Below the pieces are notes generated by a model. It made no database searches. It saw only the letters and a list, made by a program, of their open reading frames with translations, and was not told where the DNA came from. 43,686 nucleotides of DNA, from NCBI GenBank assembly GCA_008933055.1, contig WBXK01000003.1, positions 1 through 43,686 on the forward strand, in the 5' to 3' direction. The stretch's first letter is position 1. Each line of letters starts with the position of its first letter. This document shows positions 23,503 through 40,532 of this stretch, one piece after another. The position numbers were made by a program, and so were the translations under genes. Source of the stretch: Verrucomicrobiota bacterium. GTDB lineage: Bacteria > Verrucomicrobiota > Verrucomicrobiia > Limisphaerales > JADLHS01.

Positions 23503-23568
23503 TCCGCAGATTACGCGGATGGACGCAGATTCAAAAACAAATCTACTCCAACCTATGAAATCTGCGGA
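23503..23568. repeat. inverted-arm repeat element in the purA-uppS spacer
   Basis: Perfect 10-bp terminal inverted repeat tccgcagatt/aatctgcgga. The left arm is three CGCAGAT-like units at 9-10 bp spacing, mirrored by three degenerate AATCTG units. Confidence 0.8.
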
Positions 23569-23578
23569 CGACTTTCGT

Positions 23579-24847
23579 TCAAACAAAAATCGTCTGATCT
23601 CTCCCTGGGCCGACGGAGGCGATGTAGAGCTTCGCACCAGTGAGTTCCGCGATGGCGTTCAGATACGTGCGAGCTTTAGGCGGAAGTTGCTTCCACGTTT
23701 TGCATTTGTCCGTTGGCGTATTCCATCCCTCGAACTCCGCATAGATGGGCTCGCACTCGGACAGCACTTGCACGTCGTTGGGCATGTAATCGTAACGCTT
23801 TTTGCCGTGGCGATAAGCGATACAGACCTTGATGTTCTCCACGGTGTCGAGTCCGTCGAGATTCGTAATGGCGAGATCGTCAATGCCGTTGACCATTGTG
23901 GCGTGGCGCGTGGCGACGGAGTCAAACCAACCGCAGCGGCGTGCGCGACCCGTCGTCGAACCAAACTCGCGTCCCATGCCATGCAGCAAATCCGAGATGA
24001 CCTGATTTTCCGTGGGCAACGGCCCTTCTCCGACGCGCGTGGTGTAAGCCTTCATCACGCCGACAACGCTATCCATGCGATGCGGCGGCACGCCTGAGCC
24101 AGTGCAAGCGCCACCCGCGGTGGTGTTGGACGAGGTCACGAACGGATATGTACCGTGATCAATATCGAGGAACGTGCCTTGCGCGCCTTCGAACAACATA
24201 TCTGCGCCTTGATTGATGGCGTCGTGCAGCAGTACGACAGTGTTCGTGACGAAAGGCTTGAGAAATTCGCCTGCCTTCTTGTATTCCGCGAAGACTTGCG
24301 TGAACGAAACCGGTTTTGCACCTAGTGCCTTGAGCATGCTGTTGCTCTCCTTGATACGGACGGAAAGTTTTGCTTCAAGGCGCACTGGATCGACCAGATC
24401 CGCCATGCGCAGACCGACGCGCGCAACTTTGTCACCGTAAGCCGGGCCAATGCCGCGCTTGGTTGTGCCGATTTTGTTCTTGCCTTTCAGCACTTCGCGC
24501 TGCGCGTCGAGTTCGCGATGATAAGGAAACACGACGTGAGCTGTCTCGCTGACGACAAAATTCTTGCCGACCTTGATGCCGATTTTTTGCAACCCGGTAA
24601 TCTCATTGACGAGACCGATCGGATCAATCACCACGCCATTGCCGATGACGCAGAGCTTCGTCTTACGCAAAATGCCTGACGGAATGAGGTGCAGAACGTA
24701 CTTCTTTTTGCCAACCCAGACGGTGTGGCCAGCGTTGTTGCCGCCTGCGTAACGGACGACGATGTCGGCGCTCTCGGTGAGCACGTCAATGATTTTGCCT
24801 TTGCCTTCGTCGCCCCACTGGGCGCCGACGAGAATTGTATTCGCCAT
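23579..24847 (-). CDS. purA: adenylosuccinate synthetase
   Basis: [45 protein letters not shown] and [10 protein letters not shown]. Start at ATG 24847. Confidence 0.97.
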
Positions 24848-24868
24848 AAATGATCGGTTTCCGACAAT

Positions 24869-24949
24869 AAAAATCCCCGAACGTGAATTCGGGGCAAAGC
24901 GTTTCTTTCTTTGCGGACAGAGGATAGGAAGGCCGCTGGCGGGTGTCAA
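24869..24949 (-). promoter_or_regulatory. purA promoter and structured leader
   Basis: TTGACA (24949-24944)-17 nt-TATCCT (24926-24921). The leader contains a gcaaag/ctttgc hairpin, then ccccgaa/ttcgggg followed by ATTTTT. Confidence 0.65.
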
Positions 24950-25013
24950 TTTCGAGGTTAATACACAAACTTCCTCATAGGCTTCAGAAAAAATCTTTGC
25001 CAGAATTACCAAA

Positions 25014-27377
25014 ATGTCGCACCGCAGAAAACAGAACGTGGATTCGCACCGCCGCTCGACGCCATTGATAATCCTGATCGCATTAGCGGTTGTGACGTGC
25101 GTCGGTTGGTTCGTGTTCAACCCTGCGCGCACCGGATCGAGCATTGATACAATCCGCCATACGACCAAGTTCCGGTTAGAAGACGAGGTGAAGATTCACG
25201 CAGACTACGCTGGCTCGGAAAGTTGCAAGCAATGTCATGAAGATGCCTACAATTTGTGGGCGAAATCCCACCACGGTTTGGCAGAACGATTGCCAGACGC
25301 GTCACTAGATAAACCGGCGTTCTCGCCTAGCCGCAGCTTCACTCACGGCACGCAAAAAACTTCAACACGCGAAGCCAACGGTCGCTGCGAAGTCGTTGCC
25401 GCTGGATTGGACAACACACAGGAAGTTTTTCGCGTCGATCGCGTCATCGCCCACTCGCCGTTGCGTCAGATGCTCGTGGAATTTCCTGGTGGACGCTGGC
25501 AGGCGACAGAAGCCGCCTTTGATCCTCGCTCAAACGAATGGTTCAATGTCTATGGCAACGAAGATCGTAAGGCGGGCGAGTGGGGCCACTGGACGGGGCG
25601 AGGCATGAATTGGAACACCATGTGCGCCACCTGCCACAACACCCGCCTTCGGAAAAATTACGACGCCACCAACGACATCTTCCGCACCACCATGGCGGAG
25701 CGCGGCGTGGGTTGTGAATCCTGCCACGGCCCGATGAAGGCACACAACGCATGGCAAACCGCCAACAAAAACAGCCACGCGCAAGACCCGACGATCAAGA
25801 AAATTTCCCGCGATCAGATGTTCGACACGTGCGCCGCGTGCCACTCTCGACGCGGCGAGATCACAGGCGACCCCAAACCGGGTGACAGTTTCTTCGATCA
25901 TCATTTGCTCTCTATCACAGATGAGTCGGATCTGTTTTATGCAGACGGCCAAGTGCGTGATGAGGATTACGAGGTTAGCGCGTTTCTCGGCAGTCGCATG
26001 TTTCACAAAGGCGTGCGTTGCACCGATTGCCATGATTTCCACAGCGCTAAAGTCCGTTTGCCGGGAAATATGATGTGCCTGAGCTGTCACGGCCCGGGCG
26101 CGACGAACGCACCCCTCATCAATCCCGTTACACACAGTCATCACAAAGTTTTCGGGTTTGACGCGAGCGGCATGATGCCAAATATAGACCTCACGACTTA
26201 CAAGCCAGAAGCCATCAAGGAAACAGGTGGCGAATGTGTGAATTGTCACATGCCACAGACGATGTATATGCAACGCCACTCGCGACACGATCACGGATTC
26301 ACGATTCCCGATCCATTGCTCACGAAACAATTCGGAATCCCGAACGCGTGCAATCGTTGCCACACAGACAAGTCCACTGACTGGTCGCTCACTCACGTCG
26401 AACAATGGTATGGCGATAAGATGAATCGCCCATATCGCACACACGCTCAAACCGTTGCCCGCGCCCGCAACGGCGAGGCCTCCGCACGGGATGCGTTGTT
26501 GAAAATGTTGCAAACTGACGAACAAGATTACTGGCGCGCAGTCGCGGCAAACCTTCTTGAACGCTGGGTCAACGAATCGTCCGTCGCCAACGCGCTCGCC
26601 GCTAAACTTTCTGACACCAACGCACTCGTCCGACAGAACATAATCCAGACACTCGCCACACTTGGTGAAAACACACCTCCCGACATTCTCGCCGCGTTGA
26701 CGAATCGCCTGAATGACTCCTCGCGCAACGTTCGTGTCGTTACGGCGCAAAGCCTCGCGGCTACAATTGATCTTGATTCGCTTGCTGGCAGTGAGTTGAA
26801 GCACATGCTCGATCACAACACCGACCAACCCCTCGGCCAGTTGCAGCTTGGCATGTTTGAGTTCACGCGCGGCAACGCCACGAATGCCCTCCGCCATTTG
26901 CAGACTGCCGCCAGATGGGATTTGTTCTCGCCAGGCATCCGCCACGAAACGGCAATTCTGTTCAGCCAATTGGGACGAACCCGCGAGGCATTGGTGGAAT
27001 TACAAGAAGCCGTGCGACTCGCCCCGCGGGATGCAGAGTTCCGCTTTAAACTCGCCCTCGCATGGAACGAGCTCGGTGAATCCGCGAAAGTTCTCGCCGA
27101 ACTGGAAGAAGCCGTGAAACTCGACCCGCGTCACGCCCGCGCTCAATACAATCTCGGCCTCGCCCGCAGCGCCGCAAGAAATCCGACCGGAGCCATCCAA
27201 GCCCTGCTCGCCGCCGAAACCGCCGAACCTCGCGACGCACAAATCCCTTACGCCCGGGCCACCATCCACGCACAACTTGGCCAGATGGACGCCGCCCGCC
27301 AAGCCGCAAGCCGCGCGCTGGAGCTGAGCCCGCAATTCACCGAGGCTGCGGCATTGCTCCAGCAACTGCGGCAATAG
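25014..27377 (+). CDS. membrane-anchored multiheme c-type cytochrome with HEAT-like and TPR repeats
   Basis: N-terminal TM helix; 8 CxxCH motifs (CKQCH, CATCH, CESCH, CAACH, CTDCH, CLSCH, CVNCH, CNRCH); C-terminal TPRs. Confidence 0.88.
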
Positions 27378-39309: not shown

Positions 39310-39316
39310 ACGGGAA

Positions 39317-39351
39317 GGATAGCGGATGGAGGATGGAAGATGGAAGATGGA
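39317..39351. repeat. heptamer tandem repeat upstream of tyrA
   Basis: ggatagc ggatgga ggatgga agatgga agatgga. Confidence 0.85.
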
Positions 39352-39369
39352 AAGTAGCCCGGCGTGAGT

Positions 39370-40452
39370 TTAAATCTTTTGAACCGGAACCAATCGGCCT
39401 CTATCGCGCGCCGAAGCGAGACATGCGTCTAGGACGAGTTGCGTCTTCAGGGCTACTTCCGGCCAGAATTCGTTCAGCTTACCGGACTGAACGTAGGCGG
39501 CAAAATTGCGGATCATCAGAGTGTCTTGCGCGGTGGGATGGCCGAGTTGCGGCAATGCCCCGGCGTCGAGCGGCACAACTGTGCCCGTCGCCGCAGGGAT
39601 ACGATGCTCGGTCGCGTTGATGTCATACGCGGACTCGTAGCTGTTGCGTGGATGCACATAGTCGGCCGTGCGCAGCGTTCCCTGCGTGCCCATAAAGCTG
39701 ACCCATTGCTGAGCCGCAATGGCAAAGGAACAATGGAAGCCAGCAGAGACGCCATTCGCGAAAAACAGTTCGCCGGAGAACAGCGTTGGCGTCACGCCGT
39801 CAGCCGCGACTGCTAAGATGCGTCCGGCGGCGGTCGGCAGCTCCCAATTCATCGCGAACAATGAGATCCGGAGGCAATAACAACAGAGATCACCGAGACA
39901 GCCGTAGGGTTTGAGCGAACTCTGCACGCGGATGTTCGCTGGGAAATTGGGATTGTCGCCGAGGAAGCTGAACTCCGACGCGATGCGACGCAGCGGCCCA
40001 ATGCGATTTGCGTCATCCAGCACCGCCCGCACCAAGGCGAGGCGCGGATGATGCATGAACATGACGCCGTCCATGAACTGCACGCCATATTGCCGGCAGA
40101 CGGCGAGCATCTCGCGCAAGTCTGCCGCGTTCGCAGCGCAGGGTTTTTCCCTGAACACATGTTTGCCGGCTCGGACTGCTCGGATGACCCATTCCTTGCG
40201 CACCACCGTCGGCAACGGAATGTAAACTGCATCAATCTCGGGAGTGGCGAGCGATGCTTCGTAGCTACCATGAACTTTTGGCGCAGGCTCGAAAGTCGCC
40301 TGCACCTGACATTCGCGGATGAATTGTTGACCACGCGCCACGTCGCGGGCCGCGAGAGCGGCGGCGACGCCATTTCCGGAATTGAAGAACGCCTTCCAGT
40401 TTTTGGGGGCGATGCTCGCCGCGCCGAGAATCCCCCAACGGAGTTTGGTAAT
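39370..40452 (-). CDS. Gfo/Idh/MocA oxidoreductase lacking a canonical start codon (possible pseudogene)
   Basis: In-frame ITKLRWGILGAASIA begins at ATT 40452, with an in-frame TAA just upstream. Also DAVYIPLP, KHVFREKP and MDGVMF. Confidence 0.75.
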   Translation of the reverse strand: MTKLRWGILGAASIAPKNWKAFFNSGNGVAAALAARDVARGQQFIRECQVQATFEPAPKVHGSYEASLATPEIDAVYIPLPTVVRKEWVIRAVRAGKHVFREKPCAANAADLREMLAVCRQYGVQFMDGVMFMHHPRLALVRAVLDDANRIGPLRRIASEFSFLGDNPNFPANIRVQSSLKPYGCLGDLCCYCLRISLFAMNWELPTAAGRILAVAADGVTPTLFSGELFFANGVSAGFHCSFAIAAQQWVSFMGTQGTLRTADYVHPRNSYESAYDINATEHRIPAATGTVVPLDAGALPQLGHPTAQDTLMIRNFAAYVQSGKLNEFWPEVALKTQLVLDACLASARDRGRLVPVQKI

Positions 40453-40476
40453 GGGTTCAAGTTACCAAAAACAACA

Positions 40477-40532
40477 AAGGAGGAACTCAGAAACTCCAAA
40501 ACATGCATTCGTGAGTTCCTGAATTCCTCCTT
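40477..40532. repeat. inverted-arm repeat element after cbiX
   Basis: aaggaggaactcagaaactccaaaa versus the reverse complement of ttcgtgagttcctgaattcctcctt: 20/25 identical; 8-bp units. Confidence 0.8.

Follow-up and report, generated by a model that had tools for sequence, protein, structure and literature searches.

Word-built hairpins in Verrucomicrobiota operon spacers: probable cargo-less relatives of cassettes for GxxExxY and four-helix-bundle genes

We analyzed a 43,686-nucleotide (nt) stretch of DNA from a Verrucomicrobiota bacterium (GenBank assembly GCA_008933055.1, contig WBXK01000003.1, positions 1 to 43,686), referred to here as the window. Four of its spacers between co-directional genes, sp1 to sp4, hold elements described in an earlier note as inverted arrays of short tandem words. 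We think it probable that sp1 and sp3 (the latter half decayed) are cargo-less members of a class of dispersed, word-armed palindromic DNA insertions. These would resemble miniature inverted-repeat transposable elements (MITEs), be related to the arms of cassettes that carry genes for GxxExxY proteins or for four-helix-bundle proteins like those of 23S rRNA intervening sequences (IVS), and be spread in trans by a cassette protein. On this reading, sp2 and sp4 have the same build from other words and are low-copy. Arms of the class are runs of 7- to 11-nt words; in sp1 and sp3 the words belong to a CRCRGAT superfamily, and the ends are of the AACCRC...GYGGTT type.

The window is contig C3 of a 2.51-Mb assembly (199 contigs, 78% complete, 54.5% G+C). 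Below, G denotes a genome (G000 is the present one and the others are congeners), L denotes a locus or record from relatives, and C denotes a contig.

Two of the four spacer elements are strong hairpins

The elements and their parts are as follows.

23496-23578, minus strand: sp1, in the purA-uppS spacer; intact, cargo-less hairpin of CGCAGATT/CGCGGAT words
36905-36976, minus strand: sp2, in the aroA-cmk spacer; weak, decayed palindrome of GAATTC/CAGAATT words, low-copy
38324-38424, minus strand: sp3, in the tyrA-aroA spacer; 3' arm intact, 5' arm decayed
38336-38361, no strand assigned: tandem 11-mer array within sp3; 2.4 copies at 100%, Tandem Repeats Finder (TRF) score 52
40476-40533, minus strand: sp4, just past the stop codon of a CbiX-like gene; 25-bp hairpin of GGAACTCAG/GAAACTC words
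40464-40476, minus strand: U-rich tail after the sp4 stem, read from the sequence and the fold; it makes sp4 terminator-like

Each element was folded as RNA on both strands and compared with 200 shuffles (a heptamer array upstream of tyrA, described below, was folded on the coding strand only). sp1 contains CGCAGATT twice in direct orientation and one exact 8-nt inverted copy. No shuffle was as good as its coding-strand fold (-33.3 kcal/mol, z -5.28), and the other strand gave z -4.47. The 20-nt arms of sp4 are 90% complementary, and on the coding strand G-U pairing at both mismatches gives the 25-bp stem (-37.2 kcal/mol, z -6.06); the plus strand gave -25.0 kcal/mol and z -4.23. The 3' arm of sp3 has 2.5 CACAGATGAAA words and a GTGGCT end. 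Its arms are 85% complementary over 13 nt, and the fold is marginal (z -2.19 coding and -2.52 other strand, with 5 and 3 of 200 shuffles equally good). The sp2 arms pair over 14 nt at 86% and 24 nt at 71% complementarity and fold with z -0.92 on the coding strand and -1.64 on the other (36 and 15 of 200 shuffles equally good); taken alone, sp2 is no more than chance. Terminal inverted repeats with a long stem are present in sp1 and sp4 (z -5.3 and -6.1), marginal in sp3, and absent from sp2.

The earlier note had assigned all four spacers one inverted-arm architecture. That description suits sp1 and sp4, is borderline for sp3 (z -2.2), and does not extend to sp2 (z -0.9). Its count of about three tandem units per arm was generous for sp1, sp2, and sp4: among the window elements, TRF at score 30 flagged only the sp3 11-mer and the heptamer array. 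Its phrase "shared architecture without shared sequence" does not apply to all four either, since sp1 and sp3 draw on a single word superfamily (CRCRGAT) and every element has homologues by sequence in the same spacer of relatives. None of the window elements carries an open reading frame (ORF), and Rfam at gathering score gave no matches in the entire window. sp2 shares the build and uses other words; it is decayed and low-copy.

Could these be intrinsic terminators or attenuators of the usual kind? The sp4 stem has a long loop and, on the coding strand, is followed by a 12-nt stretch with 10 T, and sp4 is kept in the closest relatives, G017 and G003, where it has homologues in the same spacer. 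A simple terminator scan called none of the four elements; it missed sp4 because its loop limit is 8 nt. sp1, sp2, and sp3 have no U-tract, so the absence of terminator U-tracts reported earlier stands for these three and not for sp4. The clear terminators of this genome are short GC-rich stems followed by T-runs. Furthermore, the elements, sp4 included, sit within widely conserved gene orders and are missing from many relatives. As an account of the four elements, termination or attenuation is therefore very unlikely, although sp4, which is intact, may also act in this way.

The same junctions are empty, arm-only, or cargo-filled in relatives

We compared the orthologous spacers in 20 relatives and 79 named records for the aroA region and in 30 relatives for the uppS region. 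Counts are given after duplicate removal (one pair, L010/L082, is still among the empty tyrA-aroA rows). Spacers were sorted by length, with those of at most 35 nt counted as empty, and by fold.

tyrA-aroA, 84 rows: 30 empty, 25 with z < -3, 3 intermediate, 21 with z > -2, 5 over 340 nt
aroA-cmk, 86 rows: 36 empty, 27 with z < -3 (13 with words), 4 intermediate, 18 with z > -2, 1 over 340 nt
purA-uppS, 24 of 30 loci (in the 6 left out, purA is not upstream of uppS): 5 empty, 4 with z < -3, 3 intermediate, 6 with z > -2, 6 over 340 nt

Tandem plus inverted words are present in 22 of the 25 tyrA-aroA rows with z < -3. The earlier note had proposed looking for empty, arm-only, and cargo-filled states, and all three were found. 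The purA-uppS spacer is empty (9 nt) in G011 and G013, whose UppS proteins are 93% and 91% identical to that of the window. The tyrA-aroA spacer of G008 and L087 holds an IVS-type four-helix-bundle gene, absent from the window elements, between GAGTTTTGA-type arms (TIGR02436; E 5.6e-29 for G008). A further junction, compared in seven congeners, is empty in G023 and has elements of a CACGGAT-word family in G012 and G006. There, G008 has half a CACGGAT element beside one that resembles repetitive extragenic palindromic (REP) sequences, G017 has a REP-like element, and G021 has a different word hairpin.

Relatives have homologues of the window copies in the same spacers. For sp1, intact hairpins of three plus three words are present in G018 and G022. 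For sp3, L121 has an intact 101-nt hairpin whose 3' arm is 95% identical over 43 nt to that of the window, where the 5' arm is decayed. For sp2, L099, L002, and L080 have CAGGATT-word hairpins, the L080 copy being flipped relative to sp2. The 3' arms, which lie beside start codons, are conserved far better than the 5' arms (for sp1, 97% over 39 nt). Nested hairpins within loops are common in relatives' spacers.

A quick FastTree tree of concatenated TyrA and AroA (75 rows) was used to follow turnover. The tyrA-aroA states change 33 times on it, and in basal lineages the spacer is empty. At least 11 changes fall to the CRCRGAT-word state (18 rows), and 8 of these are forced by well-supported branches. 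The window's nearest rows on the tree, L013, L014, and L121, have three different word types. At the DNA level, intergenic gaps acquire, lose, and exchange elements of this kind, often precisely where the stop codon of one gene meets the start codon of the next in a conserved operon.

The 5' arm is richer in purines than the 3' arm in 21 of 22 arm-only tyrA-aroA hairpins, 3 of 14 aroA-cmk hairpins, and 25 of 33 cargo cassettes. Because sp2 and the L080 element, which occupy the same spacer, are flipped relative to each other, arms can invert in place, and we therefore dropped arm orientation as a test of origin by deletion.

The same junctions also take ordinary extra genes (purA-uppS in L135, L138, and L139; tyrA-aroA in L012 and L020; oxidoreductase-tyrA in L012 and L013). 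By eye, these are an FKBP-like ORF, a 242-amino-acid (aa) ORF without an NCBIfam match, and a secreted protein of about 261 aa with weak likeness to an oxidative-stress defence protein. In the spacers of some relatives (L013, L121, and L133), a GTAG-type REP-like family replaces word hairpins. This separate family (TTGTAGCGGCGG... palindromes) also fills operon spacers of the present genome (G000 C12:2222-2283, C9:31388-31454, C124:1002-1070, and C78:7253-7539).

Word-built arms enclose two gene families

In related genomes, the same arms enclose genes for GxxExxY proteins (PD-(D/E)XK-like), genes for four-helix-bundle proteins (the 23S-IVS protein family), and one 95-aa ORF. The present genome has two genes of each family (TIGR04256 for GxxExxY and TIGR02436 for the four-helix bundle). 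All four have tandem words upstream, and the three with an assembled downstream side all have inverted copies there, each pair of arms being different. That similar arms flank small genes of these two families had been stated in the earlier note, and this proved accurate for every such gene of this genome. One of the GxxExxY genes (G000 C124:2184-2525) has an in-frame TAG and may be a pseudogene.

The association is enriched in congeners. With this genome included, GxxExxY genes occur in 23 of 24 genomes of the genus and four-helix-bundle genes in all 24. Of the 29 GxxExxY genes in congeners, 16 have at least three inverted 7-mers in common between their two 100-nt flanks, as do 17 of the 28 four-helix-bundle genes; the figure for all genes of the present genome is 121 of 1,843. 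Direct repeats between the two flanks were found for 11 of the 29 and 6 of the 28. There are two layouts: a gene between two arms, and a gene between two whole hairpins.

Arms and genes can be closely joined. At the junction between valS and a gene whose product ends in ...EYALLKK, G012, G021, and G016 have a 136-aa GxxExxY gene within CACGGAT-family arms. The words of the 5' arm encode its start codon and first residues, and the 3' arm follows its stop codon. The first residues (MDTD...) of the GxxExxY proteins at L214, L215, and L216 are encoded by 5' arm words, which places the start codon within the arm.

The 95-aa ORF (L221:1351-1638, on G008:C38) lies inside CACGGAT-word arms between two operon genes and has no Pfam or NCBIfam match. 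It is present in 3 of 24 genomes, with relatives only in G005 and G009, and is possibly a third type of cargo. The gene before it in G008 is, by eye, presumably lutA-like.

Cargo-less copies had been proposed to be remnants of cargo cassettes. Profiles of both gene families, run against 480 six-frame spacer translations, matched only the two spacers already known to be filled. In arm-only spacers they detected no coding remnant, which speaks against that origin.

Word-built arms are dispersed in the genus

We searched with the 151-nt tyrA-aroA element of G016 as the query (E up to 0.01; a palindrome is often counted twice, once per strand). It gave 33 matches in G016, 19 in G020, 30 in G021, 84 in G012, and 16 in G008. 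The CACGGAT family, a sister of sp1 and sp3, has about 19 full-length copies in one congener. Seventeen copies from G012 and G016, each about 150 nt, lie at loci with unrelated flanks and share a two-tier build. Their outer arms are three CACGGATGRA-type words with AACCAC...GTGGTT ends, and their inner arms are CGCGAATT-type words. The outer arms have 31 invariant columns, the interior is variable, and mean column identity is 62% (17 copies and the query). Covariation says little either way: 3 of 27 consensus pairs have a double change (18 copies), and most pairs never vary.

A profile made from the CACGGAT-family copies matched 13 places in the present genome (E up to 0.01). All lie outside called genes, and one of them corresponds to the 3' arm of the C124 GxxExxY gene. 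The sp3 arm has matches in 12 of 23 congeners, 1 to 15 in each, including 10 inverted pairs with starts roughly 25 to 155 nt apart. sp1 has matches in 11 of 23 congeners, with full-length, non-orthologous copies in G006 and G018, and its arm adjoins a GxxExxY gene in G008. Rather than being single-copy, empty, and ordinary terminators, arms of the sp1 and sp3 types are thus multi-copy in congeners and can enclose cargo.

These observations bear on a further explanation, that the elements are by-products made in place by replication slippage and template switching. A short array would expand and be copied in inverted orientation, with no mobility. Single-arm arrays do exist (the tyrA heptamer array and arrays on C45, C83, C1, and C51), words have become uniform within elements (in 12 of 17 elements, both arms have the same majority word type), and the window copies are single-copy in this genome. 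However, in-place slippage would not readily account for composite copies of about 150 nt with the same two-tier build and invariant ends at no fewer than 17 unrelated loci. Nor would it readily account for the same word families at different junctions in different genomes, the strong association with two specific gene families, or the replacement of one element type by another among the nearest relatives. We regard it as quite unlikely.

Spacer hairpins have little strand preference

Another explanation is that the hairpins are locally evolved RNA structures, selected by the host for mRNA stabilisation, processing, or translational coupling, and that the likeness of their arms to those of cassettes is low-complexity convergence. 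The stems do reach from one gene's stop codon to the next gene's start codon: in 57 structured spacers, a median of 95% of the gap lies within the outer helix, which begins 3 nt past the stop and ends 3 nt before the start. In addition, conservation is strong in the 3' arms, those beside start codons, and the coding strand is the more stable one by 6.6 kcal/mol for sp1 and 12.2 kcal/mol for sp4. However, pairing is stronger on the sense strand in 31 of the 57 spacers and on the antisense strand in 26 (Wilcoxon p 0.22), and the word-built subset divides 20 to 18. The lack of a coding-strand preference in pairing fits a DNA-level palindrome better than one selected as RNA, even though sp1 and sp4 favour the coding strand.

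Placement tells the same way. A strict detector for tandem plus inverted words was applied to this genome's spacers, to shuffles, and to coding controls. It found elements in 12 of 158 divergent spacers (24 of 1,580 shuffles) and in 1 of 108 convergent spacers (9 of 1,080 shuffles). The elements are not confined to operons, and they also occur at unrelated loci. The junctions are empty in many relatives, and the 5' arms of sp2 and sp3 are decayed. Host-selected RNA structure is therefore an unlikely explanation.

The array upstream of tyrA is a conserved tyrA-linked element

The heptamer array had been interpreted as a single arm of a cassette.

39316-39352, minus strand: heptamer array directly upstream of the tyrA GTG start; 5.1 copies at 86% (TRF)

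It is instead conserved in sequence, unstructured, and attached to tyrA. The array is pyrimidine-rich, about 36 nt long, without a fold (z +0.95), and without an Rfam match. It is identical at 36 of 36 nt in L124 and at 35 of 36 in L091 and L092, always beside tyrA, whichever gene is upstream. Genomes distant from the window on the TyrA-AroA tree have near-identical arrays (L124, L091, L092, L003, L128, and others). Its conservation suggests that it serves tyrA as a leader or close to the promoter and is not an isolated arm of a cassette; candidate roles are promoter, leader, and protein-binding site.

Five relatives (L013, which is from G017, L004, L053, L058, and L128) have a hairpin of GGATGGAGAAT-type words downstream of tyrA. 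These words are complementary to the array upstream, so that tyrA itself lies between inverted arrays.

Gene context in the window

The elements lie in two conserved gene runs on the minus strand: purA-uppS, and CbiX-like gene/oxidoreductase/tyrA/aroA/cmk/plsC. Genes identified with NCBIfam are as follows.

22761-23495, minus strand: uppS, downstream neighbour of sp1
23579-24847, minus strand: purA, upstream neighbour of sp1
36242-36904, minus strand: cmk
36977-38323, minus strand: aroA, between sp3 and sp2
38425-39309, minus strand: tyrA (prephenate dehydrogenase), between the heptamer array and sp3
Minus strand, no coordinates given: Gfo/Idh/MocA oxidoreductase
40532-41374, minus strand: CbiX-like gene

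Near 40448, the oxidoreductase gene has ATT where G017 (L013) and G012 have an ATG start (MTKLRWG...), and a conserved N-terminal GxGxxG-like segment lies upstream of its next GTG. Either ATT serves as the start codon, therefore, or the start of the gene is damaged.

Comparison with known systems

A close parallel is with IVS that bear an ORF. In these, terminal inverted repeats pair into a long stem around a small ORF for a four-helix-bundle protein (S23p, or 23S_rRNA_IVP). IVS are sporadic in distribution and suspected of mobility by an unexplained mechanism, as would fit the elements described here. An account of the Coxiella burnetii IVS, which has S23p, describes a 28-bp terminal-repeat stem cut by RNase III and raises both a transposition remnant and a mobile element as its origin (PMC4990558). 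ORFs for IVS proteins are also reported in rRNA insertions of bacteria of the candidate phyla radiation (PMC11270868). In contrast, all four window elements lie between protein genes, in mRNA spacers, and not in helix 9, 25, or 45 of 23S rRNA. Their arms are tandem words, most copies have no ORF, and other cargo occurs (GxxExxY genes and the 95-aa ORF). We looked for 23S genes in five congeners. Four full-length genes (in G016, G006, and G019) were 2,809 to 2,942 nt long, compared with a model of 2,925 positions, and had no large insert; G012 gave a partial match and G008 none.

REP sequences and REP doublets (REPINs) are likewise short, non-coding palindromes in intergenic and operon spacers, non-autonomous, and sometimes within genes. 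One study of REPs describes GTAG and CGTC types, intragenic REPs, and REPtrons (PMC3733652). Unlike REPs, which are GC-rich stems of 20 to 40 bp with a GTAG or CGTC tag and a REP-associated tyrosine transposase (RAYT), the arms here are built of words, richer in A/T, 25 to 35 nt long, and untagged. Most strongly structured co-directional spacers of this genome are classical GC-rich stems with T-runs or belong to the GTAG-type REP family.

The absence of a transposase had been noted earlier. This holds for Y1_Tnp, the only transposase family that was searched for, of which this 78%-complete assembly yielded no member. All 23 congeners have Y1 genes, 1 to 16 per genome. We considered a link between Y1 transposases and the word arms and rejected it, as the flanks of 10 Y1 genes are GC-rich REP-like hairpins and not word arms. 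From coordinate tables, without statistics, Y1 genes often lie a few kb from GxxExxY or four-helix-bundle genes (G001:C31, G014:C73, G016:C1 near 2.34 to 2.38 Mb, G020:C42, G005:C37 and C374, and G015:C411).

MITEs are also short and non-coding, with conserved inverted termini, variable interiors, dispersed copies, and gene-bearing relatives that have the same termini. Dispersal of the MITE type was seen for the CACGGAT family and for sp1- and sp3-type arms in congeners, and not for the window's own sequences in this genome, nor for sp2 or sp4. As for an autonomous partner, the same arms enclose GxxExxY genes, a putative nuclease family. The elements differ from MITEs in that we saw no target-site duplication at the three sets of junctions compared, the gene-bearing relatives encode no recognised transposase, and the termini are tandem words. 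The GxxExxY/PDDEXK_3 family is entered as of unknown function in one list of families (PMC3424549).

Short tandemly repeated repetitive (STRR) sequences of cyanobacteria are arrays of heptamers. The elements share with these, and with the TAACTGA arrays of Beggiatoaceae, tandem units of about 7 nt in intergenic DNA, often just before start codons; the tyrA heptamer array fits this description. Unlike the TAACTGA arrays, which are direct repeats, inverted pairing of arrays is the rule here. TAACTGA repeats are reported as direct arrays near start codons, with one inverted set among 170 sets (PMC4679880).

In the aroA genes of L014, L016, L015, and L019, GC-rich palindromes are inserted in frame in loops of AroA (around residue 173 and at further sites), which brings the protein to about 500 aa. 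Rickettsia palindromic elements also insert in frame into protein genes. The aroA palindromes resemble these and intragenic REPs; they are of the GC-rich REP type, and the window's aroA is without them. A likeness to integron attC sites, in which structure is kept more than sequence, was considered and set aside, there being no integrase nearby.

Discussion

We favour dispersed, word-armed insertions as the explanation for sp1 and sp3. Arm-only copies would be moved in trans; the most plausible agent is a protein encoded by a cassette, for example the nuclease-like GxxExxY protein. Once inserted, an element would be co-transcribed, and its stem would begin about 3 nt past the stop codon and end about 3 nt short of the next start codon. 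Placed in this way, the insertion would be tolerated, and the stem could allow processing of the RNase III type, as in rRNA intervening sequences.

Several points weigh against this explanation. No target-site duplication was seen at three sets of compared junctions, and the terminal TYAA/TTRA belongs to the palindrome. No transposase is linked to the word arms. The four window sequences have no second copy in this genome at E < 0.05 other than one weak sp1 hit, and the CACGGAT-family profile found sp1 only at E 0.2 and did not report sp3 at E up to 1. sp4 and sp2 are near single-locus in the genus: sp4 has matches in 4 of 23 congeners, mostly orthologous, and sp2 in 1 of 23. In co-directional spacers, the strict detector found 19 of 690, compared with 93 of 6,900 shuffles and 14 of 956 coding controls, an excess of only about two-fold. 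Conservation of the 3' arms beside start codons also fits a local regulatory role. Finally, the gene calls are crude, the relatives are non-independent samples, and the tree was made with FastTree.

Metatranscriptome data were sparse. Two lake runs with small shares of the region gave 6 and 5 short contigs, none of which bridged a spacer (31-nt rule) or ended informatively at a stem, and two further runs gave none.

A wider proposal is possible, and we offer it tentatively. Word-armed hairpins might be the ends of widespread, unrecognised mini mobile elements. Small cargo proteins, namely the PD-(D/E)XK-like GxxExxY nuclease, the four-helix-bundle protein, and perhaps further ones, would propel these elements into stop-start junctions and the loops of other such elements. 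Arm-only copies, sp1 and sp3 among them, would be the MITEs of the class, and ORF-bearing rRNA IVS and some heptamer arrays would be special cases.

In full-text searches of the literature, we found no published description of word-built arms around GxxExxY or four-helix-bundle genes or of arm-only copies. For annotation, operon spacers of this kind in Verrucomicrobiota should not be taken as conserved regulatory sites or terminators unless relatives are compared. If the proposal is true, the excess of short-period repeat arrays in bacterial intergenic DNA would be partly explained, and a possible origin would be offered for rRNA intervening sequences, which have long been unexplained. GxxExxY/PDDEXK_3 proteins and the 23S-IVS four-helix-bundle proteins are very large orphan families, and they would gain a testable role if they ride in, or drive, hairpin-ended elements with dispersed cargo-less copies.

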